From the NCBI GenBank assembly GCA_039091335.1, contig JAWCME010000002.1, forward strand, positions 13,263-77,262: DNA of 64,000 nucleotides, in the 5' to 3' direction. The position numbers and the translations under genes were made by a program. Every line of letters starts with the position of its first letter. Positions within the stretch are counted from its first letter, which is position 1. Source of the stretch: Candidatus Aenigmatarchaeota archaeon. Lineage in GTDB: Archaea; Aenigmatarchaeota; Aenigmatarchaeia; CG10238-14; SCSR01. The notes under the pieces were generated by a model. That model saw only the letters and a program-made list of their open reading frames with translations. It was not told the origin of the DNA and searched no databases. This document shows, piece after piece, positions 18,603 to 57,398 of this stretch.

Positions 18603-19845
18603 GTAACAAAAGAGATTAATCCAAAGCTAATACCTAAATGTAACATAGGTATGGTCGGACATTGCTAAAGCAACCGAAAACGTTGCGCATGGAAAGACAA
18701 GCCTAGTTGAAACAATTACTGGAAAGTCAACACTAATGCATTCTGAAGAATTGAAAAGGGGAATTACAATTCGCTTGGGTTATGCGGATGCAAAAATTTA
18801 CAAATGTATAAAATGTGGAAAATATTGTTCAAGCGAAAAATGTCCTTTCTGTTTTTCTGATTGTGAGCTTCAAAGAACAGTAAGTTTTGTGGACGCCCCT
18901 GGACATGAAACTTTAATGGCCACAGTTTTAACTGGTGCTGCATTAATGAATGGGGCGATTCTTGTGATTGCAGCAAACGAGAAGTGTCCTCAGCCGCAGA
19001 CTCGTGAGCATCTTACTGCTTTGGAAGTCGTTGGAATTAAAAATGTGATAATAGTTCAAAGCAAGATAGATTTGGTTACAGAAGAAAGGGCATTGGATAG
19101 CTATAAAGAAATAAAAGAATTCATTAAAGGAAGTAGCATAGAGAATTCCCCAATAATACCGGTTTCCTCTAAACAGAGAATAAACATAAGTTCAGTTATA
19201 GAGGCAATAGAGGAATTCATTCCAGACCCGGAATTAGATGAGAAAAAAGAACTGAGAATGCTTGTTGCAAGAAGCTTTGACATAAATAAACCTGGTACAA
19301 GCCCGGAAAAGCTTGTTGGTGGGGTTTTGGGTGGAGCAATAATTCAGGGAAAATTAAGAGTTGGGGAGGAAATTGAAATTAGACCAGGTGTAATGGTCGG
19401 CTCAAAAAGAATTCCGCTTTTTACTCATGTTTTAGGGATTAAAAAATCGAATATAGAAATGGAAGAGGCTGGTCCAGGAGGTTTGCTTGGGGTATTAACT
19501 GGCTTAGACCCATTTTTAACTAAGTCTGATTCTCTTGTGGGAAGTGTGGTTGGTCTTCCAGGAAAAATTCCAGAAACAAGAGAGGAGTTAAGAATAAATG
19601 TTAATTTACTTGAGAGAGCAGTTGGTTCAAAGGATTTGAGCGCAATATCTCCAATTAAAATAGGAGAAGAGCTTATGATAAACGTAGGAACAGCACGATC
19701 TATAGGAAAGGTTAGCTCAATTAAAAAAGATTATATTGAATTAAAACTTAAAATACCAGTATGTGCTGAGGAAAAAGAAAGGATAGCGATTTCTAGGTCA
19801 ATCCTTGGAAGATGGAGGCTTATTGGTTGGGGTGTAATAAAGTAG
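18603..19845 (+). CDS. eif2g: Translation initiation factor aIF2 gamma; exons about 18603-18660 and 18680-19845
   Basis: Spliced product reads ..PKCNIGMVGHVAHGKTSL...HSEELKRGITIRLGY...DAPGHE...WRLIGWG (about 407 aa). Start codon uncertain. Confidence 0.9.
18661..18679 (+). other. Putative BHB mRNA intron (19 nt) in aIF2-gamma
   Basis: Helix TCGG/CCGA, bulges AC^A and AA^A, inner stem TTGC-TAAA-GCAA; in-frame TAA. Confidence 0.85.
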
Positions 19846-19846
19846 T

Positions 19847-20278
19847 TTATGCGCAGAATACAGATGCTTGAATGCTTTTTCCAATTGGAGGCACTATTCT
19901 ATAAACACATGTTTTTGGACCTGTGCAATCAGTGTTTTTGAGTGTTCCTGTCTTACCAGGCTCTATTCTACTAGTATCACCAGTTACTGAGTCAGCGGCA
20001 TAATTTCCACCAGAAGTTCTTATTACTGTTATACTACCACAAGTCGCCGCATTTTCTGATATTGTACAACTACCACTTACAAAACTTATATCAGATGTTC
20101 CTATATTTCTTATCATTATAGTTACAATACCTCCTGTACAGTAACTATCGACTATTTCAATTCCCTGAGTAGCTCCAGTAAAAACCCCGCTTATATACAT
20201 ATAAGCCATTCCTGCCAAAGCTATTGTTATTACTAACATTAAAATAGTAGCAATTACAGCAGAAACACCCTTTTCCAT
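19847..20278 (-). CDS. Archaeal type IV pilin
   Basis: Class III signal KG|VSAVIATILMLVITIALAG; Cys-containing variable region. Confidence 0.85.
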   Translation of the reverse strand: MEKGVSAVIATILMLVITIALAGMAYMYISGVFTGATQGIEIVDSYCTGGIVTIMIRNIGTSDISFVSGSCTISENAATCGSITVIRTSGGNYAADSVTGDTSRIEPGKTGTLKNTDCTGPKTCVYRIVPPIGKSIQASVFCA

Positions 20279-20341
20279 TCCTTCACCTTATTAATTTTTG
20301 TTTTTTTTAATTTAAATATTATTTAAATAGAAAATATTTTT

Positions 20342-20710
20342 GTGAGAATTGTTTTTGACACCAATTTCTTAATCGATATGATAAAGTTTAAGGTGGATAT
20401 AGAAGAAATAGAAGAGCTGGTTGGAAAATGTAATTTTTTTATTTTTGATAGTGTAATAGAGGAGCTAGAAAAAATTGCAAAAACAAGAAAAAAAGATGGT
20501 ATGAACGCGAAGCTCGCGCTAAATTTTTTAAAGTCTAGAAAATTTAAAACAATTAAAACGAAGTTTAAAAGCACAGACGAGGCTATAGTCAATAGTTTAG
20601 AAAAGGATTCAATAGTTGCCACTAACGACTCGGAGTTGAGAAAAATATTAAAAGCTAAAGGAATAAAAACAATTTATTTAAGATCCAAAAAACATTTAGA
20701 GGTAGGTTGA
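20342..20710 (+). CDS. PIN-domain ribonuclease (Fcf1/Utp24-like)
   Basis: VFDTNFL, TDEAI, VATNDSELR; conserved position after eif2g. Confidence 0.85.
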   Translation: MRIVFDTNFLIDMIKFKVDIEEIEELVGKCNFFIFDSVIEELEKIAKTRKKDGMNAKLALNFLKSRKFKTIKTKFKSTDEAIVNSLEKDSIVATNDSELRKILKAKGIKTIYLRSKKHLEVG

Positions 20711-20714
20711 TAAA

Positions 20715-21251
20715 ATGGTAAACTATTGGAAAGAATTGCCCACAGGTCCAAATCCGCCAGAAGAAATATTCATAGTTGTGGAAATACCAAAAGGATGGAG
20801 AAATAAAATAGAGTTTGATAAAGAATTAAATGTTTTTGTCCTTGATAGAGTTTTATATTCTCCCTTTCACTATGACTGGGCAGATTATGGCATAATTCCA
20901 AAGACTTTTTGTGAAGACGGAGACCCAGCAGATGGCTTTGTTTTGATGAGAGAAGGAACCTTTCCTGGTTGTGTGATTAAATGTAGGCCGATTGGGTTGC
21001 TTAAAATGATAGACTCTGGTGAAAAAGATGATAAAATAATAGCAGTACCTTCAAAAGACCCATTTTTTTCAGGAATAAAAGACATTTCAGACATTTCTAG
21101 TCATTTGCTCAAAGAGATTTCACATTTTTTTTCTCACTACAAAGACCTGCAGGAAAAAAAGGTTGAAGTTATAGGGTGGGAAGGGGCCAAAGAAGCAAAG
21201 GAATTTATAAAAAGGGCAAAAGAACTATACAAGGAAAAATTTGGAGATTGA
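20715..21251 (+). CDS. ppa: Inorganic pyrophosphatase (family I)
   Basis: EDGDPAD, DSGEKDDK, FFSHYK. Confidence 0.93.
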   Translation: MVNYWKELPTGPNPPEEIFIVVEIPKGWRNKIEFDKELNVFVLDRVLYSPFHYDWADYGIIPKTFCEDGDPADGFVLMREGTFPGCVIKCRPIGLLKMIDSGEKDDKIIAVPSKDPFFSGIKDISDISSHLLKEISHFFSHYKDLQEKKVEVIGWEGAKEAKEFIKRAKELYKEKFGD

Positions 21252-21252
21252 G

Positions 21253-21813
21253 ATGTATAGAGTTGTTACAGTTGAAGGAAGAATAAGGGTTCCTCCGGAA
21301 AAACTCAACATGAAGGTTAAAGAAGCTGTAAAGGAAAGTATTGCTGATTGGTTTGAAGGAAAAATAGACCAAAGGCTTGGTGTTATACTCTCAGTTGTTT
21401 CTGTTGAAAAAATAGGTGAGGGAAAAATAGTAGCAGGAGACCCAGGAGTTTATTATATGGCCACGTTTAAGCTTCTGACATTTAAGCCAGAATTGCATGA
21501 GATAGTTTATGGAGAAGTAATAGATAACACGGAATTCGGTTCATTTGTTCGTATAGGTCCAATGGACGGTTTGATTCATATCTCTCAGTTAATGGATGAT
21601 TTTGTAAGCTATGACAGCAAAAATTCTGTCTTCCTTGGAAAAGAAACCAAAAAAACGTTGAAAGAAGGAGACAAAGTAAGGGCAAGGATAATATCTGTTT
21701 CTTTGGGAAAAGGCGAGGAAAACAAAATTGGCTTAACGATGAGGCAGAATTTACTTGGTTCATTGAATTGGATAGAGGAGGAGAAGAGGAAGCAGAAGAA
21801 GGGAAGGGAATAA
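21253..21813 (+). CDS. rpoE1: RNA polymerase subunit Rpo7 (E')
   Basis: FGSFVRIGPMDGLIHISQ, KIGLTMRQ. Confidence 0.93.
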   Translation: MYRVVTVEGRIRVPPEKLNMKVKEAVKESIADWFEGKIDQRLGVILSVVSVEKIGEGKIVAGDPGVYYMATFKLLTFKPELHEIVYGEVIDNTEFGSFVRIGPMDGLIHISQLMDDFVSYDSKNSVFLGKETKKTLKEGDKVRARIISVSLGKGEENKIGLTMRQNLLGSLNWIEEEKRKQKKGRE

Positions 21814-21815
21814 AA

Positions 21816-22004
21816 ATGGTTAAAAAAATTCAAGTTTGTAGAAACTGTAGAAGGTTCACGACAGAAACTTTTTGTAATGTTTGTAAGTCTACAAACCTAT
21901 CTACGAGCTGGAAGGGGGTAGTAGTTATATTAAACACAGAAAGTGAGATAGCAAAAACACTAAAAGTTGAAGAGCCAGGAAGATACGCACTTTATGTTGG
22001 ATGA
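21816..22004 (+). CDS. spt4: Transcription elongation factor Spt4 (RpoE'')
   Basis: CxxC..CxxC zinc ribbon, WKG, PGRYAL. Confidence 0.9.
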   Translation: MVKKIQVCRNCRRFTTETFCNVCKSTNLSTSWKGVVVILNTESEIAKTLKVEEPGRYALYVG

Positions 22005-22008
22005 AGCC

Positions 22009-22503
22009 ATGAAAAAAAAGAAAGCAATTTTTATAGGAAGGTTTCAACCAATTCATTTTGGGCATGTTAAAGCAATTAAAGAAGCTATTAAAAGGTTTGA
22101 TTTGACTATTGTTGTGGGTAGTACTAACCAGAAGAGAAGTTTTGAAAACCCATTTTCATTCAAAGAGAGAAAAGAAATGATTTCAAGGGTTTTCAGAGGA
22201 ATTAGAATTGTTGGTGTTCCTGACACCAAAAACAATGGAGAATGGGTCAGGATGGTTAAGAGGAAGGTAAAATTTGATGTTGTTATCTCTGGCAGCAAAT
22301 GGGTAAACAAATGTTTCAAAAGATTTAATATAAGAGTGATTAAACCAAAACATTACAAAAGAAGAATTTTTAAAGGAGAAGAAATAAGGAGGAGGATTGT
22401 TGAGAATAAAAAATGGGTAAAACTTGTTCCAAAGGCCGTTGTTTCTTACATAAGAAAAATTAAAGGAATAGAAAGGATAAAGAAATTATATGGAAAAGCT
22501 TAA
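22009..22503 (+). CDS. Nicotinamide-nucleotide adenylyltransferase (NadM-like)
   Basis: FIGRFQPIHFGH, NPFSFKER. Confidence 0.8.
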   Translation: MKKKKAIFIGRFQPIHFGHVKAIKEAIKRFDLTIVVGSTNQKRSFENPFSFKERKEMISRVFRGIRIVGVPDTKNNGEWVRMVKRKVKFDVVISGSKWVNKCFKRFNIRVIKPKHYKRRIFKGEEIRRRIVENKKWVKLVPKAVVSYIRKIKGIERIKKLYGKA

Positions 22504-23236
22504 GGGAAAAATTGCAATAGTTACTGGCTCAGGTCAGGGAATAGGGAAAGAAATTGTAAAGACATTTGCTTCAGAAGGAGCTAAAGTAATAGTTTCTGAC
22601 ATAACAGATAAGGTATTTGAAGTTGCGAATGAAATAGAAAAAGATGGTTTTGAGGCATTTCCAATAAAATGCGATGTATCTAGTTTTAAAGAAGTTAAAA
22701 AAATGGTTGAAAAAACCATAGAAAGGTTTGGTAAGATTGACATATTAGTTAACAATGCAGGAATATTTCCATTTAAACCATTTACTGAGATGAATGAGGA
22801 GGATTGGAATAGAGTATTAGAAGTAAATTTAAAAGGAACTTTCAATTGTACAAGGGCTGTGATTGAAAAAATGGTTGAACAGAAATATGGAAAAATAATA
22901 AACATTTCTTCTATAGCAGGTACGATAGTAGGATTTGATAAGTTATCTCATTACTGTGCAAGTAAAGCAGGAATAGTTGGTTTTACTCGTGCTCTTGCTT
23001 TAGAGCTTGCTCAATACGGAATAAATGTAAATGCAATTGCTCCAGGTCCAATAGAAACTCCTGGCACCCAAATCCTTGGAAAGGACGTTTATGAAGATAT
23101 TAAGAAAAAAATACCAATGGGGAGGTGGGGGAAGCCAAAGGACATAGCAAACTTAGCTTTGTTTTTAGCTTCAGATGATTCTGATTTTATTACAGGGCAA
23201 TGCATAGTTGCAGATGGTGGATATTCAAATCAATAA
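22490..23236 (+). CDS. SDR oxidoreductase (FabG-like)
   Basis: TGSGQGIG, NNAG, YCASK. Confidence 0.9.
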   Translation: MEKLKGKIAIVTGSGQGIGKEIVKTFASEGAKVIVSDITDKVFEVANEIEKDGFEAFPIKCDVSSFKEVKKMVEKTIERFGKIDILVNNAGIFPFKPFTEMNEEDWNRVLEVNLKGTFNCTRAVIEKMVEQKYGKIINISSIAGTIVGFDKLSHYCASKAGIVGFTRALALELAQYGINVNAIAPGPIETPGTQILGKDVYEDIKKKIPMGRWGKPKDIANLALFLASDDSDFITGQCIVADGGYSNQ

Positions 23237-23237
23237 G

Positions 23238-24170
23238 TTAAGAAAGCTTAGTTAAATATTCATATGCAGAAAGGGCAGCCTTAGCTCCTTCTCCAGCAGC
23301 GATTATTATTTGCTTCCATTTTACGTCTGTCACATCTCCAGCAGCAAAAAGACCAGGAACACTTGTGTTACAGTTTTGGTCTACATCTATTTCATTCTTT
23401 TCGTTTAAAACCAATCCCTCCGGAACTTCAAAACTGATGCTTGGTTCTAATCCAATCTCTACCACAACTCCCCTTACCTTTAAATCAATCCCCTTTTTTG
23501 TTATTAAGTCAATTACTTCTATTCCTTCTACCTTTCCTTCTCCCTTTATTTCATTCACCTTTGTATTGTTAAAAATCTTTACAAACTTCAATTCCTTTAC
23601 TTTTTCTATCAATATCTCATCACCAGTCAATTCAGGAGCAATGTTGATCAAATATATTTTATTTGTAAACTTTGCTAGCTCTAAAACAGCCTGTAAAGCG
23701 GAATTGCCACCACCTATTACTGCGACTGGCTTATCCTTGAAAAATACTGCATCACAAATCGCACAATAAGTTACCCCTTTTCCAATAAGCCTTTTTTCTC
23801 CAGGAACATTAAGGCTACGTGGCTTTTTTCCAGTTGCAATGATAACGCTTTTTGCCCAGTAAACACCGTTTTCTGTTTCTACTTTAAAAAGTTTGTCTAT
23901 CTTCTTTATCGACCGAACCACTTCTTGTATAACCTTTATTTTAAAAACCTTTAGGTGTTCATCAAATCTTCTAACAAGTTCTTGCCCAGGAATCATCGTA
24001 AAGCCAGTATAGTTTTCTACATCAGTAGATAAATTTGCTTGTCCACCTATATCTAGGGTTAAAACAAGTATATCAAGTTTTTTTCTCGCTAGATAAATTG
24101 CTGCTGTTATTCCTGCAGGACCAGCACCAACTATTATAGAATCATAAGGAACTATAGATGCTACTTTCAT
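23238..24170 (-). CDS. trxB: Thioredoxin reductase-like FAD oxidoreductase
   Basis: GAGPAG, CAICD, GGGNSA, AAGD. Confidence 0.88.
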   Translation of the reverse strand: MKVASIVPYDSIIVGAGPAGITAAIYLARKKLDILVLTLDIGGQANLSTDVENYTGFTMIPGQELVRRFDEHLKVFKIKVIQEVVRSIKKIDKLFKVETENGVYWAKSVIIATGKKPRSLNVPGEKRLIGKGVTYCAICDAVFFKDKPVAVIGGGNSALQAVLELAKFTNKIYLINIAPELTGDEILIEKVKELKFVKIFNNTKVNEIKGEGKVEGIEVIDLITKKGIDLKVRGVVVEIGLEPSISFEVPEGLVLNEKNEIDVDQNCNTSVPGLFAAGDVTDVKWKQIIIAAGEGAKAALSAYEYLTKLS

Positions 24171-24190
24171 TCTCTCTAATTAATTTTAAA

Positions 24191-25051
24191 TTAATATCTT
24201 ATAAAATTCTTTATTACATTTGGAATTTCTTCTATTAAATCGCTTGTAATAATACCCTCGCTGTATTTTTTTGCTGCAATTTCTCCACTTTTTCCGTTAA
24301 TGTATGCTGCAGCGCAGGCTGCGGTAAAAACATCTACATTTCTTGCAAGATATGCTCCTAAGATTCCAGCCAAAGTATCACCCATTCCCCCTTTTGTCAT
24401 TACAGGGGAGCCAGTTCTATTTAAAGCAACTTTAGTTCCATCAGAGATCACATCAACATGACCCTTTAACAATATTGTTGTTTTAAGTTTTTTTGCAGTT
24501 TCTCTAACAACCTCAGCCCTTTCTTTTAAATTTTTTGAGACCTTAACCCCAGACAACACATACATTTCAAAGGAGTGGGGGGTAAGAACAAAATTTTTGT
24601 TTTTTATTACCTCCTTTTTTAATGAGATTGCGTGAATTGCATCAGCGTCTATTACACAGGGCAAATCAAGATTTTTAAGATATTCTAAAACAGCATCAAA
24701 AACTTCTTCTTTCCTACAAAGCCCACCTCCTATAACAACAGCACTCTTGTTTTTTGTGAATTCGATTAGCTCTGGCAAATGTTTTTTATTTAAAAACTCT
24801 CCTTTCAAAGGATACGCTATCAAGTCTGGCAAAAAAGATGCTATGATATTTGCAGCCCTTTCCGGTGCAAGTATTGTTACTAAATCTACCCCGGCCCTTA
24901 AAGCGGCCAATGCATTAAATACAGGAGAACCAGAATAATGTTTGCTTCCTCCTATAACCAATAAATGTCCAAAACAATATTTATGCGACCAAGCGTCTCT
25001 CTTCCTATAGATTTTTTTGAGAACACTTTCATTCACTTCAATCATTTTCAT
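24191..25051 (-). CDS. nnrD: NAD(P)HX dehydratase
   Basis: HK..FG, IDADA, LTPH, GGMGDTLAG. Confidence 0.88.
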   Translation of the reverse strand: MKMIEVNESVLKKIYRKRDAWSHKYCFGHLLVIGGSKHYSGSPVFNALAALRAGVDLVTILAPERAANIIASFLPDLIAYPLKGEFLNKKHLPELIEFTKNKSAVVIGGGLCRKEEVFDAVLEYLKNLDLPCVIDADAIHAISLKKEVIKNKNFVLTPHSFEMYVLSGVKVSKNLKERAEVVRETAKKLKTTILLKGHVDVISDGTKVALNRTGSPVMTKGGMGDTLAGILGAYLARNVDVFTAACAAAYINGKSGEIAAKKYSEGIITSDLIEEIPNVIKNFIRY

Positions 25052-25088
25052 AATTTAATTATACTGTTTATTATTAATTAAGAGAGGA

Positions 25089-25580
25089 ATGAAAAAAATA
25101 AGGGTTGGTATCTTTTCATTTACTTGTGATGAAGGATGTAGTATGAGCATACTTGAAATATTAAATAAAAAATTTTTTGAATGGAAGGATTTTATTAAAA
25201 TAGAACATTTCAGGCTTTTGAAATCAAAGAGCAGAACAAAAAATTTAGATGTTGCGTTTATAGAAGGAGCAATATCAACATTTAAAGAAAAGAAAAGTAT
25301 AGAGGAAATAAGAAAAAATTGTAAAAAAATTGTTTTGATTGGGAGCTGTGCAATTAGCGGTTCTCCTTCAAACGCAAGAAATTTTTTTGATGAAGAAAGA
25401 AAAAAAGAGATTCAAGGGATTATTAAAAAATTTGGTCATATGGAAAAGGTTTTTGCGGCGAGTGAAATAATTAAGGCAGACTATTATGTTTTTGGATGTC
25501 CGATAGAAGAAAGGTGTTTTGTTGAGACGATGGAAAAAATTTTAAAGGAATTTGGTGTTAAGGGTGCATCATGGGTTTGA
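25089..25580 (+). CDS. NiFe hydrogenase small subunit, short form (N-terminal domain only)
   Basis: CDEGC, IEGA, IGSCAISG, GCP; no C-terminal Fe-S domain. Confidence 0.8.
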   Translation: MKKIRVGIFSFTCDEGCSMSILEILNKKFFEWKDFIKIEHFRLLKSKSRTKNLDVAFIEGAISTFKEKKSIEEIRKNCKKIVLIGSCAISGSPSNARNFFDEERKKEIQGIIKKFGHMEKVFAASEIIKADYYVFGCPIEERCFVETMEKILKEFGVKGASWV

Positions 25581-26841
25581 GTTGAATATAGATGGTATAA
25601 GTAAGACAGAGGGGCATGCTGGTCTTGAAATAAAAGTAAGGAATAATAAAGTGGAGGAAGTAAAATTAAAGGTAAGCGAGAACAAAAGGTTTTTCACGCA
25701 AGCAGTTAGGGGGAAAAAATTTTATGAGGTTCCAAATTTTCTATCTAGGATATGTGGTACTTGCAGTATTGCACATGTGCTCGCATCCATAGAAGCCATA
25801 GAAAGGGCTTTGGGTATTGAAATTTCACATCAAACAATTGTGCTAAGAAGGTTACTTATGTTTGGTTTGATTATAAGGGACCATGCGATGCATCTCTATT
25901 TTCTTTCCTTGCCAGACGTATTTAAAAAAGATTCTATAATTGAGCTTTTAGAAAAAAAGCCAGAAATTGTAAGAGATGCATTTGAAATCAAGGCTGCTGG
26001 AAACAGCATTAGCAAGCTAGTTGGTGGAAGGGCAATCCACCCCTATCTATGCACCATAGGTGGTTTTTTGAAAATTCCAAAAGAAGAAGAGATAAGAAAA
26101 ACATTGAAAGAATTGAAGGCGATTAGGGAAAAAATTTTCCCACTTCTCGAAATCTTTTACGATTCAAACCTATCTTTTGAAAATGAAACAAACTATGTTG
26201 CCCTTTGCACACCAAGTTTTGACTTTTTGGAAGGTGAAATAAGAAGTTCAGATGGCTTAATCATTCCTGAAGATAGGTTTTGGGATTTTGTAAACAGGGT
26301 TGTTTTGCCTTACTCTCAATCAACAGCCTTCCAATTTTCAGGCAAGCCTTATAGGGTTGGGGCTTTGGCAAGAATAAACTTAAACTCAAAAGCATTGGAT
26401 GAGGATACAAAGAAAGATGTCAAAATTTACTTAAAAAAATTCCCTTCTCACAACATTTTTTATAACAATCTTGCACAAGGAATAGAAATACTTCACTCAA
26501 TAGACGCTTCAATAAAAATACTTGAGGGGTATGATTTCAAGGAAGAAAGAATAAAAGAAATAAAGGTAAAGGAAGGGGAGGGGGTTGGTGTGGTAGAAGC
26601 ACCAAGGGGAACTCTTTATCATATGGTTTACTTGGATTCAGAAGGCAAAGTTAGATTTATGAATCTTGTGATACCAACTGCCCAAAACCAAATCCAAATG
26701 GAGCTTGACATAAGAGATTTAGTGCAGAAAAATTTAGGGAAGAGAAAACACTCAATACAACACAAGGTTGAGGCTTTGATAAGGGCGTATGACCCATGTT
26801 TTAGCTGTGCAAGCCATTTCTTAAAGGTTAGATGGGTCTGA
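25564..26841 (+). CDS. NiFe hydrogenase large subunit (group 3-like)
   Basis: EGH, L1 RICGTCSIAH, EAPRG, L2 DPCFSCASH plus a C-terminal extension. Confidence 0.9.
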   Translation: MHHGFELNIDGISKTEGHAGLEIKVRNNKVEEVKLKVSENKRFFTQAVRGKKFYEVPNFLSRICGTCSIAHVLASIEAIERALGIEISHQTIVLRRLLMFGLIIRDHAMHLYFLSLPDVFKKDSIIELLEKKPEIVRDAFEIKAAGNSISKLVGGRAIHPYLCTIGGFLKIPKEEEIRKTLKELKAIREKIFPLLEIFYDSNLSFENETNYVALCTPSFDFLEGEIRSSDGLIIPEDRFWDFVNRVVLPYSQSTAFQFSGKPYRVGALARINLNSKALDEDTKKDVKIYLKKFPSHNIFYNNLAQGIEILHSIDASIKILEGYDFKEERIKEIKVKEGEGVGVVEAPRGTLYHMVYLDSEGKVRFMNLVIPTAQNQIQMELDIRDLVQKNLGKRKHSIQHKVEALIRAYDPCFSCASHFLKVRWV

Positions 26842-27796: not shown

Positions 27797-27829
27797 ACTA
27801 AAAATTAATATAAAAGCCATATAAATTAA

Positions 27830-47488: not shown

Positions 47489-47490
47489 TT

Positions 47491-48398: not shown

Positions 48399-49105
48399 TA
48401 CAATCTACCATACTTTTCTTTCAAAACCTTTTTTTGTATTTCATATATTTTTTTGCAAGACTCTGTCCCCATTTCTATAAGTTTCTTAATCTCTTCTCTT
48501 GTTAGAATTCCGTCCATCTGTAATAGTGTTATTTTATTTTTTGTTGGTAATATCGCAAACGCAACATCTGCCTCAGAGTGTTGGTCTTCTATGCCAGAGA
48601 GGTCAACTATGAGCTTATCGTCTATCTTTCCGATAGAGCATGCTGCCACCAAATCTTTCATAGGAATTCCTGCATCAGCAAGTGCTAGGCTAGCAGCATT
48701 TAATCCAGTAACACGAGTTGAGCCGTCTGCCTGTAAAACTTCTATAAAAACATCTATAACCGCCCTTGGAAATTCTTCAAGAAATATTACCGGTTCAAGT
48801 GCAAGCCTCACAACTTTTGAGATTTCTGTGCTTCTTCTATCTGGTCCAGGGCTTTTCCTTTCATCTACACTAAATGGTGCCATGTTATATCTACACCTCA
48901 AAATACATTTCTCCGGCTCCCTAAGATGCTCCGGAAAAAGTGCTTTTGGTCCGTACACAGAAGCAATAACTATGGTATTACCAAACCTTACCATGGCAGA
49001 ACCATCTGCCCTAGAAACAGCATCTAGTTTTATCTCTATCTCTCTCATCTCTTCCGGTAATCTTCCATCAAGTCTTTTCCCCTCTTTTATCAACTCTACT
49101 TTCAT
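48398..49105 (-). CDS. rrp41: Exosome subunit Rrp41
   Basis: RYNMAPFS, PDRRSTEIS, QADGSTR. Confidence 0.95.
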   Translation of the reverse strand: MKVELIKEGKRLDGRLPEEMREIEIKLDAVSRADGSAMVRFGNTIVIASVYGPKALFPEHLREPEKCILRCRYNMAPFSVDERKSPGPDRRSTEISKVVRLALEPVIFLEEFPRAVIDVFIEVLQADGSTRVTGLNAASLALADAGIPMKDLVAACSIGKIDDKLIVDLSGIEDQHSEADVAFAILPTKNKITLLQMDGILTREEIKKLIEMGTESCKKIYEIQKKVLKEKYGRL

Positions 49106-49761
49106 TCGCTCAACATCCTCTCTATTTTTTCGGTCAACCCAATTAAATGAGACTCCTTCTCTATCGTTAAAATTGCCTCTATAACTTTCGCTTTATTCAC
49201 CCCATTTATCCAAACTATTCCATTTTGACCAGCTATAATCTCACATCCACTCTTAGATTTAAGTATTGTTATCATACTTCCTCCCCTTCCTATTACTCTT
49301 GGTATTTTTGTTGGGGTGATTTTTATAGTAGTTCCTCCATATAACTTTCTTGCGCCTATAGTTTTCATACTTATTGTAACGGTTTTGTTTTTTGCTACTT
49401 TTGATATCTTGCAATATATAAGCTCTCCCAAGTCATAATATCTACTAATATCTGTTTTGAGGATGTCAACATATTCTCCCACAGCTTCGCTGATAGGAAG
49501 GAATGCAGTATAAGGCGAATTTATGTCAACGACCCAGCCAGAAGTTTGTATGTCGCTTATTGTTCCAATAACCATATCTCCAACAGATGGAATATAAACT
49601 CCAGAAAGTGCCACTACTGTTATTTCGTTTTCAGTTATCTTTGGTATTCCAAGAACCTTTGCAAAAACCTCTTCTCCTTCAGCATAAGCACCTCTTCCAA
49701 TTCTCCTTCCTTTCCTTTCTCCTATTTTTTCTCCGGGCAATACTATCTCTCTAACTTCCAT
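49102..49761 (-). CDS. rrp4: Exosome RNA-binding subunit Rrp4
   Basis: VLPGE, YIP.VGD, PRVIGRGGSM, GQNG. Confidence 0.92.
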   Translation of the reverse strand: MEVREIVLPGEKIGERKGRRIGRGAYAEGEEVFAKVLGIPKITENEITVVALSGVYIPSVGDMVIGTISDIQTSGWVVDINSPYTAFLPISEAVGEYVDILKTDISRYYDLGELIYCKISKVAKNKTVTISMKTIGARKLYGGTTIKITPTKIPRVIGRGGSMITILKSKSGCEIIAGQNGIVWINGVNKAKVIEAILTIEKESHLIGLTEKIERMLSE

Positions 49762-50467
49762 ATTCTTCCCTCTTTACTATTTTTAGTTCAAAGTCACCAT
49801 GAGTAATTGAAGAAATTTTTTGAAAAAGTTCGTCTTTAATACCAGCCAAAACTTGTAGGCTAACTTTTAAACTTCCGTCATTCAACCAAGTCTCTGATAA
49901 TAAATTACCATAATTCCTTAGAAAAGAATAACCTTTTCCAGCATATTGAGCAGGAATTTTTATCTCCAGAGTTAGTTTTTGAAAGCTTATTGGTATGACT
50001 GTTTTTATTGCTTTCACCACATTATCAACCTGTTGCTCTGCATCAAGAAAAGGGTCTATGTTTATTCCAACCTTTTCTATTGCGCTTAATATTCTCTGAG
50101 GAGGATGTGGGGAGTTTGTTTGTGGGTTTATCCCTCTTCTTGAAATTATGTCTGCTATTTGGTTTTTTTTAGTTTTAATCATTTCCCTTCTTTGTTCTGT
50201 TGTAAGTTGTATCTCTCCTTCCTTTATTATTTTTTCTGCAACTTTAAGCACATCGGTTGTGCCAAAAACATTTTGCAATTCTGATTCCGGAATAGTTTCA
50301 GTGCTTCTAACATCACGATATATTGCCGGATATGCAAGTACATCTTCTATCAAAACCTTCTCCCCCTTCTTTAGTCCTAAGGCTTTGTAAGGATCTACCA
50401 ACACCTCAAATTTTTTTCCAGAGCGATGTAGTCTAGCAATAACCGCCTTCTCTATGCTTACAGTCAA
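49751..50467 (-). CDS. Ribosome maturation factor SBDS/Sdo1
   Basis: FEVLVDP, GEIQLTTEQRR, PHPPQRI. Confidence 0.93.
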   Translation of the reverse strand: MTVSIEKAVIARLHRSGKKFEVLVDPYKALGLKKGEKVLIEDVLAYPAIYRDVRSTETIPESELQNVFGTTDVLKVAEKIIKEGEIQLTTEQRREMIKTKKNQIADIISRRGINPQTNSPHPPQRILSAIEKVGINIDPFLDAEQQVDNVVKAIKTVIPISFQKLTLEIKIPAQYAGKGYSFLRNYGNLLSETWLNDGSLKVSLQVLAGIKDELFQKISSITHGDFELKIVKREEYGS

Positions 50468-50471
50468 ACCA

Positions 50472-51211
50472 TCACTTAATTTTTTCCGTCTCTTCTCTAC
50501 TTAACTTTCTAAATTTTCCATCCTTTTCTATTATTGCAATATCTATACTCTCTTCTTTTCCAATTTTTTCTGATTTTGATAGAATATCAATTGCAAGTCT
50601 TATTGCTTCCTTTCTGTCCATTCCCTCCCTCCATTTCTGTCTCAATGTTTTGTTTGCTAGCGTCCCACCCCTTCCTATGCCGTATGCCTTCCACTCATAA
50701 AGCATACCAGAAGGATCTGATTCTATTAGATGCGCTCCAGTTTTGTCAACACCTCCAATAAGAATGGTTGTTCCAAAGGGTCTTAGTCCTGCATATAATG
50801 TGGAGAGTTGCATTCTATCACCTATTGCCCTTGCAATACCCCAAACATCTATAGGTTCTTCATAGGTTATTTTATGTACTTGTGCCTTTATTCTTGCTTG
50901 GTTTATCAAAACCCTAGCATCAGCTAACAACCCAGCTGAGACAGAACCTATGTGTTCATCTATCTGGAATATCTTCTCCACGGATTCTGAAACGATTAAT
51001 GTGCCTGTTGGCTTTATTGTTGCAAGTAGCACACCGTCCTTAAAGATAATTCCAAGGCAAGTTGTTCCTCTTTTGACAGCTTCTTTTGCATATTCTACTT
51101 GAAATAGTCTTCCGTCTGGGGAGAAGACAGCAATTGTTCTATCATAACCCATATGAGCAACCTTCAGCTATTAGCTGAAGGTTAATACTCTGGAAGTATT
51201 TGTGGTGGCAT
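50472..51211 (-). CDS. psmA: Proteasome alpha subunit; exons 51211-51185 and 51152-50472
   Basis: Spliced product [31 protein letters not shown] (235 aa); GAGGTGA Shine-Dalgarno 6 nt upstream of ATG 51211. Confidence 0.92.
51153..51184 (-). other. Putative BHB mRNA intron (32 nt) in psmA
   Basis: Outer stem CCA/TGG, helix GAGT/GCTC, bulges AT^T and AT^A, perfect 11-bp inner stem; starts with an in-frame TAA. Confidence 0.85.
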
Positions 51212-51287
51212 TATTCATCACCTCATTTTTCTCCTAATCATAATAATCAATTTATTTTTATTAGTTTTTCATGTTTTAAAATGTATG

Positions 51288-51626
51288 CTATAAACCCAAG
51301 GATTTTATTGTTCCAGATACTTTTAATATTTTAAAAATTACCCTTGAGTCTCCTAGTCTTGAGATAAGACCTAAACAAGAAATAACTTTTTGCACAGATT
51401 TGTTATTGCACTTTATTACTCCAACTTGTTCTTTTTCCTTATACAAATTCTTTATTATCCACAAAGAAGTTTGAGAAAAGCCATGCTCTCCAAAAAACTC
51501 TAAGCAGGAATTAATTATTGCGTGTTCTAAATCAGAATAGACTATTGGTTCTTCGGAAATAACCTTAAATTTTATGTATCTTTCTTTTTCCCTTAGCGTG
51601 GGCAACAAATTCTTTAGTTTTTTCAT
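51288..51626 (-). CDS. rnp2: RNase P protein Pop5/Rpp14
   Basis: PTLREKERYI, VSGTIK. Confidence 0.88.
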   Translation of the reverse strand: MKKLKNLLPTLREKERYIKFKVISEEPIVYSDLEHAIINSCLEFFGEHGFSQTSLWIIKNLYKEKEQVGVIKCNNKSVQKVISCLGLISRLGDSRVIFKILKVSGTIKSLGL

Positions 51627-52051
51627 TTTTTTCTCCTCATAATATCTATCAAAATTTTTCTATGGTCAAAACCGAGATTTAGTTTTAAAGCCTCTTTTAT
51701 TGGAAAAAAATCAACTTCTTCTGCTTCTCTTCTCGCTTTAACTCTATTTCCTATGGGTTTACAAAAGTATGCAATAGATATAACATGTCCTCTTGGGTCA
51801 CGATTAGGAGAATCATAAATACCAATTAAATCCAGAATTTTTACTTCAAGTCCAGTTTCTTCTTTAACCTCTCTTATGCATGCCTCTTTTGTTTTTTCCC
51901 CAGGAATAACAAATCCTCCCGGAAGCGCATAACTCCCTTTAAACGGTTGTGTTTTTCTTTTCAATAAAAGCACTCTTCCTCTATGAATAACAACAGCATC
52001 TACAGCCACAGGCACGGTTGGTCTTGTTACTTTTATTGCAGACATTCTCAT
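51623..52051 (-). CDS. Nudix hydrolase
   Basis: GG..GE...ACIREVKEETG Nudix box, RDPR. Confidence 0.9.
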   Translation of the reverse strand: MRMSAIKVTRPTVPVAVDAVVIHRGRVLLLKRKTQPFKGSYALPGGFVIPGEKTKEACIREVKEETGLEVKILDLIGIYDSPNRDPRGHVISIAYFCKPIGNRVKARREAEEVDFFPIKEALKLNLGFDHRKILIDIMRRKK

Positions 52052-52764
52052 CTCACTATCTTTACTCCAGGCATAATCCATTTTTCATCCTTCCTCTCTT
52101 CAATCATCTTAATAATATTACTTGGAATATTTGTTATTGCATCCTTTGCTTCTTTATATTCTAGGCCAAGCTGACAAGCCATTGATACCAAGCATTCTGG
52201 GGCCCTAAGTTCCCAGCAAGATATTGCACCAGAGCAAAGTATTATTTTTGCACCAAACTTTTTTGCTAAAAAAACATTCTGTGCAATATTTTTTAATACG
52301 ATACTCCTATTCCTTTTTGTAGATAGAAGAATTTCTCTAAAGTTTATTTCTATTGCTACATTATTCTCTGCAGCCAGTCTTACTGAAACATGGTCAAGCC
52401 CGGAATCATTTCTATTGTATTCGGGATGTGTCAAAATATCAACTTCTGGCGTCCCACACGCCTTTCTGTTTAAATTTAAATCCCCTCCTCTTGCCAGTAG
52501 AATATCAAACTCTCTTCTTCTATTTGCTAATTGTATCAATTCCTTTATGTTTCTGGCTTCAAAACCTAGTAGAATTTTTATTTTGGTTTTTTCTTCAACT
52601 CTTTTGATTTCAGCTTTTAATATTTCCTCCTCTTCCTTTCTAAGAGGATAAGAAGTAAAACAAATTCCACAATATCCCAATTCTTTTGCCATGGACGCCA
52701 ATTCTTCTAGGCTAGACTCACCACCTGAGAATGCACTATGTACATGTAAGTCATACGCCTTCAT
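52048..52764 (-). CDS. rnp3: RNase P protein Rpp30 (PHP fold)
   Basis: GGDLNLNRKAC, VDILTHP, ELRAP; operon position. Confidence 0.88.
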   Translation of the reverse strand: MKAYDLHVHSAFSGGESSLEELASMAKELGYCGICFTSYPLRKEEEEILKAEIKRVEEKTKIKILLGFEARNIKELIQLANRRREFDILLARGGDLNLNRKACGTPEVDILTHPEYNRNDSGLDHVSVRLAAENNVAIEINFREILLSTKRNRSIVLKNIAQNVFLAKKFGAKIILCSGAISCWELRAPECLVSMACQLGLEYKEAKDAITNIPSNIIKMIEERKDEKWIMPGVKIVR

Positions 52765-52798
52765 AATTATCTTGGTTTTGTTTTAAACTTAAATTTGA

Positions 52799-53302
52799 CT
52801 ACTTTTTTCTTGATTTTTTGGCAGCAGCAGTTAATCCCCTTAAAGCCCTTTTTCTATGTGCAGGTAGAGATATCCAATTAATCTTTGGGTCTTTAATTAT
52901 ATTTGGATTTTTAGGGTCTACAAGCAAACATTCAAACCATTTATACATACCATCTTCACCCACATAGTAGCTTCCAATTACTTCAAGGTTCGGGAATTTT
53001 CTGTTCGCTTTCTGTTCGGCTATTGCTTGTAAAGATTGTTTTGGTGTAAATTTTACTAGTCCTGACTTCGACGGTTTCCTTCCTCTCCTTCCATAAAGTT
53101 TTCTCCTTCTTCCTCCCTTCCTTACTTTTACTCTAGCTACTACATATCCCTTCTTGGCTTTATATCCCAATTCCCTTGCTCTATCGAGACGAGTTGGCTT
53201 TTCTATTTTTTCTACTGTATGCTGCCTTCTCCATTCTATTAATTTTTCCTTTAACTCTTTCTTCCAATTTTCCTTTATATAATGATACATTCCTTTGACC
53301 AT
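52799..53302 (-). CDS. rpl15e: 50S ribosomal protein L15e
   Basis: [27 protein letters not shown]. Confidence 0.95.
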
Positions 53303-53361
53303 GGTTTCACTTTACATTAACTTTATATATATTACAGATTAAATTGTTTTAAAGGTGAAGT

Positions 53362-53610
53362 ATGCATCCAATAGGTAAAATAATAGTAGGAGCAATCCTG
53401 ATGATAGGTAGTGTATACTACATTTTCCGAGGAATACCAGGTATGTTTGAACCAGCACTTCCTGCTTTGATAGTAGTATTAAATGGAGCAATTCCACCAT
53501 TCGTTTTCCTTATAGGACTTTTCATAGTATGGCTAGAATTAGACGAGCTTAGAATAGAGAGGGAACTGAAGCAGGAAGAAAAGAAGGCAAGAGCAAAAAG
53601 AAAGAGATAA
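53362..53610 (+). CDS. Small two-TM membrane protein
   Basis: Hydrophobic helices and a charged tail WLELDELRIERE. Confidence 0.65.
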   Translation: MHPIGKIIVGAILMIGSVYYIFRGIPGMFEPALPALIVVLNGAIPPFVFLIGLFIVWLELDELRIERELKQEEKKARAKRKR

Positions 53611-53659
53611 GTCCTTTCATTTTTAAATTTTATTAGTACTATTTTTTAAAGGTAAGTTT

Positions 53660-54685
53660 ATGGGTATTCAGCTAACAGGAATTATTCCAAAAAAAGAAAT
53701 AGATTTGAATTCTCTTTCTGGAAAAAAAATTGGAATAGACGGGTATAATGCAGCATATCAGTTTTTAAGCATTATTAGGCAAAGACCAACAGGAGAATTT
53801 CTAAGGGATTCGAAAGGAAACATAACCTCTCATCTAAGTGGAATATTCTATAGGACTGCAATACTTATAGAGGCAGGAATAAAGCCTTTATATGTTTGGG
53901 ATGGAGAACCACCAGAATTCAAGAAGAGAGTTGTGGAAGAAAGAGTTGAAAGAAGAGAAGAGGCAAGAAAAAAATGGATGGAAGCATTAGAAAAGGGAGA
54001 AGAGGCAATGCCATATGCTCAGGCCGCAGTAATGCTTACAAAAGAGATAATTGAAGAATCAAAGAAACTTTTGGAATACATGGGTATACCTTCTATTCAA
54101 GCAAAAAGCGAAGGTGAAGCTCAGCTTGCGTTTCTAGCGAAAAAAGGAGAAATATGGGCATCAGCTTCTCAAGACTGGGACAGTATTTTGTTTGGTTCGC
54201 CAAGACTTTTAAGGAATTTATCAATTACAGGGAAAAGAAAACTTCCAAGAAAAGAAGTATACATAGAAATTAAACCAGAGATAGTAGAGCTTGATTTTGT
54301 TCTCTCGAGTTTGGGGATAACAAGAGAACAACTTGTTATGATTGGAATTTTAATAGGGACAGATTATAATCCCGGGGGGGTTGAGGGGTTTGGACCAAAA
54401 AAGGCCTTAAGCCTTGTAAAGGAATGTAAAAGTTTGGATGAAATACTTAAAAGGATAGAATGGAAGTTTGAAGTTGGGGCTGAAGATATATACAACTTCT
54501 TTATGCACCCACCTGTTAATGAAAAATATAAAATACAATTTAAAGAGCCGAACAAGGAAAAGATAATTGAATTTATGGTAGAAGAGCATGACTTTTCAAG
54601 AGAAAGGGTAGAAAAGGTGGTTGATAAGCTTCAGCAATCCTTTGCTACAGGAACACAGGCTAGTTTGAAAGGATGGTTAAAATAA
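53660..54685 (+). CDS. fen: Flap endonuclease 1
   Basis: YQFLSIIRQ, EGEAQ, GTDYN, C-terminal PIP box QASLKGW. Confidence 0.95.
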   Translation: MGIQLTGIIPKKEIDLNSLSGKKIGIDGYNAAYQFLSIIRQRPTGEFLRDSKGNITSHLSGIFYRTAILIEAGIKPLYVWDGEPPEFKKRVVEERVERREEARKKWMEALEKGEEAMPYAQAAVMLTKEIIEESKKLLEYMGIPSIQAKSEGEAQLAFLAKKGEIWASASQDWDSILFGSPRLLRNLSITGKRKLPRKEVYIEIKPEIVELDFVLSSLGITREQLVMIGILIGTDYNPGGVEGFGPKKALSLVKECKSLDEILKRIEWKFEVGAEDIYNFFMHPPVNEKYKIQFKEPNKEKIIEFMVEEHDFSRERVEKVVDKLQQSFATGTQASLKGWLK

Positions 54686-54708
54686 ATTTAGAAAGATAAA
54701 TTATTTTC

Positions 54709-56208
54709 ATGGAATTAGAAAAAATAATCTCTATCGCAAAGTCAAGAGGGTTCTTTTGGCCATCTTTTGAAATCTACGGAGGAGTTGCTGGGTTTTGGGA
54801 CTATGGTCCACTGGGATGTGTTTTAAAAAGGAAGTTTGAAAATTTTTGGATAGATTTTTTTGGAAAAAAAGAGGGGTTTGTAGAAGTAGAGACACCATCT
54901 TTAATGCCAAAAGAAGTTTTTGTTGCTTCTAAACATTTAGAAAAATTTGTAGATCCGATAACGAGATGTAAGAGATGCAACTCAGTATACAGGGCAGACC
55001 ACCTTATTCAAGAAAAGTTAAAGTTGAGTAAAGAGGAAACAGAAGGTCTTAGTTTGGAAAAGCTTTCGGAGATCATAGAAAAAAATAAGATAAAATGCAA
55101 ATGTGGTGGAGAGTTAAGAAAAGTAGAATTTTTTAACATGATGTTTAAAACAATTGTCGGGACTCAGAAAGAATTTTTTCTTCGTCCAGAAACAGCACAA
55201 GGCCAGTTCTTATGTTTCAAAAGGGTTTTTGAGTTGCAAGGAAGGAAACTTCCTCTTGGAATAATTCAAATAGGGAAAGCTTTCAGGAATGAAATATCCC
55301 CTAGACAGGGAATAATAAGGCTAAGAGAGTTTACCCAAGCCGAGGCAGAAGTATTCTTTGATGAGGAAGAAATTAATGAGTTTGAAAAATTTGAAGAAAT
55401 AAAAGATTATGAGTTGAATTTGTTCACACTTAAAAACAGGAAAGAAGAAAAAATTTTAAAAATTAAAGCAAGTGAAATAGTTAGAAAAAAAATATTGCCA
55501 AAGCTTATTGTTTATTTTATGGCAAAAGTCCAACAATTTTTTGAAATTCTTGGCATTCCAAGAGAAAGTATGCGTTTCAAGGAAATGTCGAATGAAGAAA
55601 AACCGTTTTATACAAGATACGCTTGGGACCTTGAAATATTTACCAAAGCATTTGGTTGGGTTGAGTGCGTCGCAAACAACTACAGGACAGACTGGGATCT
55701 TTCTGGTCATATGAACATGAGCAGAGAAGATTTAAGGGTTTTTAAAGATGGAAAAAAATTTTTACCCCATGTTTGGGAAATTTCTTTTGGTATTGATAGA
55801 CCAATCTACTGTCTTTTTGAGCATTGGCTTACAGAAATTAAAGATAGGGTTGTGTTGAGAATTCCTCCGAAACTTGCTCCATTTGATGTAGCCGTTTTTC
55901 CTTTGGTTGCAAAGAACGGTCTTAACGCAAAGGCAAAAGAGGTTTTTAAACTACTTTTTGAAAGAGGGTTTAACGTGAAGTATGAAGAAAAGGACTCAAT
56001 AGGAAGAAGGTATTATAGGGAAGATATGGGAGGTACGCCGTATTGTGTTACTGTAGATTATGAAAGCATGGAAAAGGAAGATGTAACAATAAGAGAAAGG
56101 GATTCAAGTGCACAAGTGAGGGTTAAAATAAAGGATTTACCTGAAATTCTTAGAAGATTGTTAGAAAAAGAGTTGGAGTTTAGTGGTGCTGGAAAAACAC
56201 TAGGTTGA
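54709..56208 (+). CDS. glyS: Glycyl-tRNA synthetase (alpha2 type)
   Basis: LRPETAQG, FRNEISPR, RLREFTQAE, SFGIDR. Confidence 0.93.
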   Translation: MELEKIISIAKSRGFFWPSFEIYGGVAGFWDYGPLGCVLKRKFENFWIDFFGKKEGFVEVETPSLMPKEVFVASKHLEKFVDPITRCKRCNSVYRADHLIQEKLKLSKEETEGLSLEKLSEIIEKNKIKCKCGGELRKVEFFNMMFKTIVGTQKEFFLRPETAQGQFLCFKRVFELQGRKLPLGIIQIGKAFRNEISPRQGIIRLREFTQAEAEVFFDEEEINEFEKFEEIKDYELNLFTLKNRKEEKILKIKASEIVRKKILPKLIVYFMAKVQQFFEILGIPRESMRFKEMSNEEKPFYTRYAWDLEIFTKAFGWVECVANNYRTDWDLSGHMNMSREDLRVFKDGKKFLPHVWEISFGIDRPIYCLFEHWLTEIKDRVVLRIPPKLAPFDVAVFPLVAKNGLNAKAKEVFKLLFERGFNVKYEEKDSIGRRYYREDMGGTPYCVTVDYESMEKEDVTIRERDSSAQVRVKIKDLPEILRRLLEKELEFSGAGKTLG

Positions 56209-56547
56209 TTTTCCTCTATATATTTTTGCAAAATTTGGTGTTATTATTAAAAAGTCTTCGTCAACTCCTGCTATATCTCCGTTCATCGCTAAACATGTTT
56301 TCCTAAGCTTATCAACGCTTCTTTTAAGTTCTGTTATGTCTTTTTGTCTTATTTCCCTTATTTTTAGGAATATTATGTTACCTTCTCTGAGCATTTTTTG
56401 TATTCTTTCTGTATCTGCATAATCCCTAAGATTTTCTATCTTTATGTTTATTTTTTCTTCTTCTGGTACAGGCTCTACTTCAACAAACTCCTCCTTCTCT
56501 TCCTTTGTTCTCCTCTTAAGCAAATCTTTAAGAGCCATTTCAATCAA
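56200..56547 (-). CDS. sepF: Cell division protein SepF (archaeal)
   Basis: LREGNII, GDIAG, IITP. Confidence 0.8.
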   Translation of the reverse strand: MIEMALKDLLKRRTKEEKEEFVEVEPVPEEEKINIKIENLRDYADTERIQKMLREGNIIFLKIREIRQKDITELKRSVDKLRKTCLAMNGDIAGVDEDFLIITPNFAKIYRGKST

Positions 56548-56574
56548 TATTAATTATTTTTTAAAATTAAAAAA

Positions 56575-56829
56575 TTAGCTTATTTCCCTCCTTTTTTCTT
56601 CTAGTATGCTTACAGCATTCCATATCTTTGTTCTAGCATAGACCGGCATGTTTGGGTCGTTTATTATTTCGTCTAGGATATGAATTGCTGTACTTATTTT
56701 TACTTCTAGAGATTCTTTACTATTCAATACATTTTTTGAATCTTCTGCAGCCTTTCTTATGTTCTTTGGAACAGTTTTATCGTTTATTATTTGATCCAAA
56801 AATGAGATTGCTTTGGTTATTTCTTCCAT
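56575..56829 (-). CDS. UPF0147 family protein
   Basis: DKTVPKNIR, DPNMPVYART. Confidence 0.88.
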   Translation of the reverse strand: MEEITKAISFLDQIINDKTVPKNIRKAAEDSKNVLNSKESLEVKISTAIHILDEIINDPNMPVYARTKIWNAVSILEEKRREIS

Positions 56830-56874
56830 AACATCACTTTATATAAAATTAATTAAATGAAGACTAAAAAATTA

Positions 56875-57210
56875 TCAAATTTTTTCCCTTATTTTTGTTT
56901 CTAATTCTTTCAGCTTTTCGTTTGTTTTTGCTTCGCTTTTCTCTAAACTTTTTATTCTTATTTCTATAGATTCTTTTGCTTCACTAAGCTCCTTTTTAAG
57001 TTCTTCAACGGGCTTTTTTATCATTACCTGCCCAGCAATTTTATATGCTTCATTTTCCTTTGTTTTGTTTAACTCTTCAAGCGCCCTCTCTATCTCAAAA
57101 ATTTGCATGTTTAAACTTTCTTTCTGTAGCAGTATTGTTTGAAGTTGCTGTTGATAAGCCTGAAATTGTGTTATCATATTTTTTGTTTCTTCAGACATCT
57201 CTTCTGGCAA
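56875..57210 (-). CDS. pfdB: Prefoldin beta subunit
   Basis: Coiled coils flanking AYKIAGQVMIK. Confidence 0.88.
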   Translation of the reverse strand: MPEEMSEETKNMITQFQAYQQQLQTILLQKESLNMQIFEIERALEELNKTKENEAYKIAGQVMIKKPVEELKKELSEAKESIEIRIKSLEKSEAKTNEKLKELETKIREKI

Positions 57211-57241
57211 AAAATCACCACATATTATTTAATTGTATAAA

Positions 57242-57398
57242 CTATATAGATTCAACCCTTTTTATTACTTCTGGTCTCGTTTTTGCCAAAATTCTATGGG
57301 CCCTGCTTGCTTTAAAGCAAGCAAGTAAACCCGCAATATGGACATCTAATGTTTTCTTCCACATTCACAATTTTCTTACATTTTACACACTTATACAT
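57242..57398 (-). CDS. rpoP: RNA polymerase subunit Rpo12 (P); exons 57398-57327 and 57295-57242
   Basis: Spliced 41-aa product MYKCVKCKKIVNVEENIRCPYCGFRILAKTRPEVIKRVESI; canonical position between L37ae and prefoldin. Confidence 0.9.
57296..57326 (-). other. Putative BHB mRNA intron (31 nt) in rpoP
   Basis: Helix GGGT/GCCC, bulges TT^A and AT^A, 10-bp inner stem with TTAA loop; in-frame TAA. Confidence 0.88.

Follow-up and report, generated by a model that had tools for sequence, protein, structure and literature searches.

Probable bulge-helix-bulge introns inside core protein-coding genes of an archaeal genome

In the textbook view, to our knowledge, cbf5 is the one archaeal protein gene that is interrupted; the references for its intron are reportedly Watanabe 2002 and Yoshinari 2006. 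Here we examine a 64,000-nucleotide stretch of archaeal DNA (the window) in which short insertions break the reading frames of three core genes, aIF2-gamma, psmA and rpoP. Comparison of the sequences makes it highly probable that all three are archaeal bulge-helix-bulge (BHB) introns lying within coding sequences, which would have to be spliced out of the mRNA.

A search of the full-text literature, with subscription journals outside its coverage, returned only two BHB introns in mRNAs: the coding-sequence intron of cbf5 and an intron in a 5' untranslated region (5'UTR) of Haloferax. The 2020 Haloferax authors, where they treat earlier work, name cbf5 as the sole previously reported case (PMC7714728), and the pre-mRNA passages of EndA papers from 2018 and 2025 cite the cbf5 papers alone. 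According to the parts of PMC2738675 that describe it, the cbf5 pre-mRNA intron of Crenarchaeota (Desulfurococcales and Sulfolobales) resembles the present elements in being of BHB type, in lying inside the coding sequence at a catalytic motif, in being cut between the second and third bases of each bulge, and in having been gained and lost among relatives. The 5'UTR intron of Haloferax volcanii HVO_1309 likewise makes an mRNA the substrate of EndA, which was confirmed there in vivo and in vitro (PMC7714728, in the sections on this intron). The BHB introns of archaeal tRNA and rRNA share the motif, the enzymes and the size range (11–129 nucleotides (nt), medians 12–25 nt, in the relevant parts of PMC4090602 and PMC5829648), and many are present in this genome too.

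The window belongs to contig C12 in genome G000, which comprises 570 kilobases (kb) in 29 contigs, is 87% complete and has 33% G+C. Among named records, those nearest to its aIF2-gamma come from Candidatus Aenigmatarchaeota genomes, which suggests, at the level of sequence similarity, that the order in question is Aenigmatarchaeota. The stretch is present in hot-spring metagenome runs, and in four DNA runs its share ranges from 0.24 to 0.94. The three interrupted genes are made up as follows, in window coordinates:

18600..18660, forward strand: aIF2-gamma exon 1; frame open up to the 5' cut; N-terminal stretch and first half of the P-loop strand, aligning with relatives
18661..18679, forward strand: putative aIF2-gamma BHB intron, 19 nt; same-site introns in relatives, hairpin covariation
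18680..19845, forward strand: aIF2-gamma exon 2; remainder of the P-loop to the stop codon; Pfam GTP_EFTU, GTP_EFTU_D2 and eIF2_C
51185..51211, reverse strand: psmA exon 1; 9 codons, with the ATG 6 nt downstream of GAGGTGA
51153..51184, reverse strand: putative psmA BHB intron, 32 nt; canonical form, recurring in relatives
50472..51152, reverse strand: psmA exon 2; ATG at the 3' splice site; Pfam Proteasome_A_N 1–23 and Proteasome 1–189
57327..57398, reverse strand: rpoP exon 1; 24 codons with the first three Cys of the zinc ribbon; weak Zn_ribbon_RPAB4 match (profile 1–25 of 32)
57296..57326, reverse strand: putative rpoP BHB intron, 31 nt; helix, bulges and hairpin read directly
57242..57295, reverse strand: rpoP exon 2; 17 codons and stop; colinear with the C-terminal half of RpoP in 28 relatives

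The first-pass annotation of this DNA had reported insertions of 19, 32 and 31 nt with an in-frame TAA in these genes, each forming a helix of 4 base pairs (bp) between two 3-nt bulges together with a hairpin. The insertions were found where it had placed them, and the structure can be read directly in all three. The layout is the same in all of them: four exon bases pair with four intron bases, one 3-nt bulge lies on each strand, and the hairpin is flanked by the first bulge on one side and by the 3' strand of the 4-bp helix on the other. In aIF2-gamma, TCGG (18655–58) pairs with CCGA (18674–77), the bulges are aca (18659–61) and aaa (18678–80), and the hairpin occupies 18662–73; a TAA at 18666–68 follows in the exon-1 frame, two codons past the first half of the P-loop, and the gene resumes in another frame. 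In psmA, whose exon 1 is preceded by a good ribosome-binding site and followed by TAA immediately after its final codon, GAGT (51190–87) pairs with GCTC (51158–55), with bulges att and ata and a perfect 11-bp hairpin. The rpoP insertion, which breaks the gene after the third zinc-ribbon cysteine, pairs GGGT (57332–29) with GCCC (57301–298) and has bulges tta and ata, a 9-bp hairpin and an in-frame TAA.

Cutting in silico after the second base of each bulge removes exactly 19, 32 and 31 nt and restores both frame and motif: the P-loop of aIF2-gamma, the conserved PsmA N-terminus ahead of GYDR, and the zinc ribbon of RpoP. We compared these predicted products with loci of close relatives, 29 for aIF2-gamma (26 of which cover the site), 29 for psmA and 28 for rpoP, and found them colinear, residue for residue, with the uninterrupted homologues (21 of 26, 24 of 29 and all 28, respectively). 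Its further claim that the insertions obey the cut rule of EndA also holds up, in that same-site insertions of other lengths fit the rule, the hairpin covaries, and the published cut likewise delimits the canonical 37/38 intron of tRNA-Arg in the same genome. According to the substrate descriptions in PMC4090602, this 3-4-3 geometry defines an EndA substrate.

Beyond the inner hairpin that all three insertions possess, the outer helix differs, with 4 bp in psmA, 1 bp in aIF2-gamma and an irregular form in rpoP. Minimum-energy folds reproduce the layout of bulge, 4-bp helix and hairpin in most members, the aIF2-gamma element of this genome not being among them. The central helix, first 3-nt bulge and hairpin all appear in the minimum-energy structures of psmA (z −4.2) and rpoP (z −2.6). 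For psmA, that structure adopts a 5-bp register with an equal number of pairs; the 4-bp register is, in our reading, the one that restores the frame.

The comparative evidence is most detailed for aIF2-gamma, orthologues of which occur in 31 of 31 genomes. Five of the 26 informative relatives carry an insert at the same place, and the spliced product is colinear with the uninterrupted genes residue for residue; of the 80 top-ranking loci among species representatives from across Archaea, 75 lack an interruption. Across the order, for which 118 genomes were surveyed for aIF2-gamma and psmA, same-site introns occur in eight genomes from three families, with lengths of 19, 20, 22, 22, 24, 24, 30 and 33 nt, and every length restores the frame under the one geometric rule. 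Their distribution is patchy even inside single genera (one of six genomes, two of four), which points to frequent gain or loss. When six of these introns were aligned, 98% of cells were paired and all four hairpin pairs had changed on both sides; none of 500 shuffles reached the covariation score, and sliding the partners reduced pairing to 8–41%. The central helix is invariant across the alignment and is thus uninformative either way. A pattern search for the aIF2-gamma intron through the 118 genomes gave nine hits against seven with a reversed control pattern; hits were kept only if located at the aIF2-gamma gene, and one in G003 was rejected.

Two further observations concern this gene. 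Just upstream of the exon-1 frame (window 18590–18615) are two in-frame TGA codons, and the frame contains no ATG, GTG or TTG before 18651. In those relatives that were read by eye, the same N-terminus comes after an in-frame GTG within GG(A/G)GGTG, a GTG that in the present gene (18593) is off by +1. The offset looks like the effect of one extra A in the run at 18599–18602; candidate explanations for the odd start are an assembly error, +1 frameshifting on the A-run and initiation at an ATT (18615). Separately, the aIF2-gamma genes of one Aenigmatarchaeota and one Bathyarchaeia genome contain an intein (L137:2-460 and L183:2-448, with L125 probably likewise; Pfam Intein_splicing, E about 2e-9) that ends at about the same P-loop site as the putative BHB intron here. 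This site seems to draw two kinds of mobile element.

In psmA, besides the 24 uninterrupted relatives, three have an insert at the same site and two have one a few codons further on. The short N-terminal peptide encoded by exon 1, which ends in PEY, is conserved in the 24 uninterrupted genes, and exon 1 is on that account real coding sequence. Same-site introns were recognised in G014, G017, G004, G091 and G060. Across the order psmA is present in 114 of the 118 genomes, and in 23 the alignment begins only at residue 9 or later. Twenty 5' regions were fetched. Eleven give a perfect 21/21 motif or join the conserved exon 1 after excision by the rule, one has no intron, and eight have no clear assignment, some of them resembling two adjacent introns. 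Two adjacent introns seem to be present in L198, L206 and L056, and L203 and L209 hold inserts without assignment. The insertions lie ahead of the M in MGYDR, behind DRT in either of two phases, or behind IAV. On the 5' regions of relatives taken together (L196-L215, L033, L040, L046, L056 and L057), psmA has a hot spot for such introns within the order in roughly its first 20 codons, with at least four distinct positions or phases. By comparison, rpoP is uninterrupted in all 28 relatives, from which we take its intron to be a recent gain.

We compiled 25 introns of 19–35 nt, including those of relatives. One geometric rule fits all of them, and every one has the full 4-bp helix, although its completeness was a selection criterion for the 17 from psmA and rpoP. 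In 24 of the 25 the opening base of the first bulge is A, and 18 have AA at the end of the intron. Stop codons in frame with exon 1 are found in 24, among them all seven whose length is a multiple of three; this excess may be biased, since the psmA set was found partly through broken alignments and the relatives are not independent.

The inference of genome-wide mRNA splicing in the first-pass annotation stands in a modest form. The scan of the genome for BHB motifs that it proposed was uninformative as a generic count: a loose motif gave 171,083 hits, so that the motif alone is not rare here and the case rests on exact junctions, recurrence in relatives and covariation. Motif-plus-frame scans against decoys with shifted junctions gave 15,300 real hits versus 15,421–15,839, 7,931 versus 7,872–8,165, 519 versus 454–574, and 499 versus 523–558. 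As decoys score alike, generic scans of this kind cannot count introns in this A+T-rich genome. A strict motif produced about 50% more hits than block-shuffled sequence, which we judged to be non-specific, a codon-usage filter on the exon flanks gave no enrichment, and a wider candidate list read by eye yielded no additional clear case. Candidates in RpoD, PpsA, an AAA-ATPase, an IleRS-like gene and RtcB were rejected on the grounds that exon 1 was not coding-like, and when window proteins were searched by tblastn for split matches in the loci of relatives, only the overlapping genes rrp4 and rrp41 came up, which are not introns.

A signature was then derived from the 25 compiled introns. It requires a first bulge starting with A, an A-rich second bulge, at least two G-C pairs in the central helix and a length of 17–37 nt. 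It gave 98 hits in the genome, of which 36 restore a frame and six of these join recognisable conserved motifs. The six are the aIF2-gamma and psmA introns of the window and four new candidates outside it, on contigs C1 and C23 of G000:

L216:262-285, forward strand: putative intron of aIF5A, 24 nt, at the hypusine loop; N-terminal domain matched by exon 1, OB-fold domain by exon 2
L217:1036-1056, reverse strand: putative intron of a TyrRS-like class I synthetase, 21 nt, just ahead of the HIGH motif; exon 2 begins at profile position 19
L218:165-184, reverse strand: putative intron of L37e, 20 nt, in the zinc knuckle; exons match the Pfam profile at 2–18 and 20–50 of 53
L219:2501-2525, reverse strand: putative intron of SMC, 25 nt, in the Walker A loop; exons match SMC_N at 2–36 and 38–216 of 220

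In each of these the exons match adjoining parts of one Pfam profile, and the folds show the motif. The 570-kb genome thus has at least seven coding-sequence introns, a lower bound, and all seven lie within about the first 50 codons, counted from likely starts, inside a highly conserved motif.

How such genes could be expressed can be outlined from the known enzymes. In the pre-mRNA, the four exon bases before the 5' cut would pair with the four intron bases before the 3' cut, leaving two 3-nt bulges on opposite strands and the remainder of the intron as a hairpin. EndA would cut each bulge between its second and third bases, and RtcB would join the exons and probably circularise the intron. 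The complete P-loop of aIF2-gamma, the N-terminal tail of PsmA and the zinc ribbon of RpoP would then come from spliced mRNA only, and the stop codons within the introns would end translation of unspliced copies early.

RtcB is present in the genome (284.5 bits, profile 1–209 of 426), its gene being cut by a contig end. Among relatives, endA was found in 30 of the 30 searched, and the window's own family has a single alpha-type gene of about 190 amino acids. This protein aligns over its full length with the homotetrameric enzyme of M. jannaschii, 1a79. Compared with 1a79, the EndA of one relative (G007, L100:1240-1806, an ORF of 188 amino acids) has a 6-residue insertion within a conserved stretch of its C-terminal half. 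This insertion may be the DPANN-specific loop that PMC5829648, in the part dealing with it, links to more disrupted tRNA genes. The window also contains a tRNA gene:

58909..59005, reverse strand: intron-containing tRNA gene, tRNA-Pro by ARAGORN; a 36-nt insertion interrupts the anticodon arm (Rfam tRNA, 50.1 bits)

The same splicing system thereby has a further substrate in the window. ARAGORN and Rfam place its intron differently. In the whole genome ARAGORN finds only 25 tRNA genes, many with introns, and so non-canonical or multiple introns probably conceal more of them.

Several observations weigh against splicing of these mRNAs by EndA. Of the two enzyme genes that the annotation had proposed to seek elsewhere in the genome, only rtcB was recovered: neither the Pfam family of endA, at E values as high as 10, nor the protein of a relative located endA in the 87%-complete assembly, and we infer that its absence reflects incomplete assembly. 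Enzymes of the alpha4 type are moreover held, in the relevant discussion of PMC5829648, to cut strict motifs only. The aIF2-gamma element, with its outer helix of a single pair, does not have a BHB as its minimum-energy fold (z 0.02), and that gene has a second frame problem at its 5' end. In psmA an ATG stands exactly at the 3' splice site (51150–51152), whereby an unspliced mRNA could yield PsmA lacking the conserved 9-residue N-terminal tail. Motif and frame restoration taken together gave no excess over shifted-junction decoys (756 versus 672–736, and 36 versus 23–35). Finally, among the sequencing runs that contain the stretch none is recorded as RNA, and two 'metatranscriptomic' runs with small shares are marked 'probably DNA'.

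Against this background three other accounts have to be considered. Phage T4 gene 60 is an example of translational bypassing, in which the ribosome would hop over hairpin and stop codon and the RNA would stay unspliced. Every insert does have a hairpin, and the psmA stop right after the last exon-1 codon resembles the take-off site of gene 60. We nevertheless regard bypassing as extremely unlikely here: the conserved junctions do not result from any matching pair of take-off and landing codons, the only downstream TAT in psmA lands out of frame, and the 4-bp helix with its two 3-nt bulges, the covariation and the single rule for 25 inserts would be left unexplained. It is just as hard to believe that the genes are simply broken, as pseudogenes or through assembly or binning artefacts, with incidental hairpins. 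Such an account could draw on the fragmented metagenome assembly, with its 29 contigs and incomplete gene content, and on the one-base frame problem near the aIF2-gamma start, yet these are single-copy core genes with conserved exons and covarying hairpins, same-site inserts recur in separately assembled genomes of other genera, and the stretch is found in four DNA runs. The annotation had named intact second copies as a ground for rejecting its reading. In this 87%-complete assembly none was found of aIF2-gamma or psmA, nor any convincing second rpoP, the nearest thing being one weak zinc-ribbon match elsewhere on C12.

The third account covers a structured RNA handled by some other nuclease, programmed frameshifting, or a psmA hairpin that is a 5' leader with the start codon after it. 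We consider this highly improbable as well, despite some points in its favour. A different nuclease would suit the failure to find endA in this assembly, but the geometry is that which defines an EndA substrate in the sections of PMC4090602 that treat it, and EndA is encoded by all 30 relatives. In aIF2-gamma, where the exon-2 frame is open from 18649 onwards, reading through by a +1 shift is conceivable in principle, but it would put extra residues into the P-loop, and frameshifting cannot serve those inserts, seven of the 25, whose length is divisible by three and which contain stops. For psmA, the Pfam domains are complete in a protein translated from the ATG at 51152; against a leader stands the conservation of the exon-1 peptide in 24 of 29 relatives. 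The 3-4-3 geometry is explained by none of these accounts, and introns of BHB type remain our preferred reading.

As such, they are probably mini-introns of a selfish or neutral kind, often gained and often lost, and the site of insertion is the most conserved motif close to the gene's 5' end. A bolder view, which we think unlikely, is that the order uses routine enzymatic mRNA splicing as a switch: the expression of core genes for translation, transcription, proteolysis and the chromosome would be tied to EndA and RtcB through the nearly universal in-frame stops (24 of 25), the mini-introns would home into conserved 5' motifs as inteins do, and psmA splicing would toggle between gated and open proteasomes, unspliced psmA giving an alpha subunit without the N-terminal gating tail.

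What sets this genome apart is that, within 570 kb, at least seven core genes are unreadable unless a tRNA-type intron is removed, and that psmA introns occupy several positions across the order. If splicing does take place, a prokaryote would possess spliceosome-free mRNA splicing alongside coupled transcription and translation, making the timing problem testable, and the lineage would provide a natural system in which protein genes often acquire and lose introns. For DPANN genomes, gene callers and estimates of completeness would then systematically truncate or miss such genes. The annotation had foreseen this for gene callers, and taking the first plain ATG, GTG or TTG frame does give an aIF2-gamma without its P-loop, a PsmA without its tail and an RpoP in two fragments.

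Among described systems, the splicing of HAC1 and XBP1 mRNAs is a protein-only, spliceosome-independent removal of a short intron at stem-loops that changes the frame, with tRNA ligase machinery joining the exons. Unlike the introns described here, it depends on another nuclease and another motif. In eukaryotes it acts as a regulated stress switch. This unconventional splicing, by IRE1 with tRNA ligase or RtcB, is named in the corresponding passage of PMC13149111. The BHB introns of archaeal tRNA and rRNA differ in that their host RNA is untranslated, so that there is no conflict with the ribosome and no frame to restore. The HVO_1309 intron, as PMC7714728 describes it in the sections concerned, lies in an untranslated leader and leaves the reading frame uninterrupted. 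The cbf5 intron affects one gene at one site, mostly has a relaxed motif and was linked by its authors to a hetero-oligomeric EndA (PMC2738675, in the parts on motif and enzyme). In contrast, the present genome has at least seven interrupted genes in 570 kb, and the putative introns, which use several sites in psmA, are of the strict 3-4-3 form, measure 19–35 nt and occur in a lineage whose relatives encode a single alpha-type EndA.

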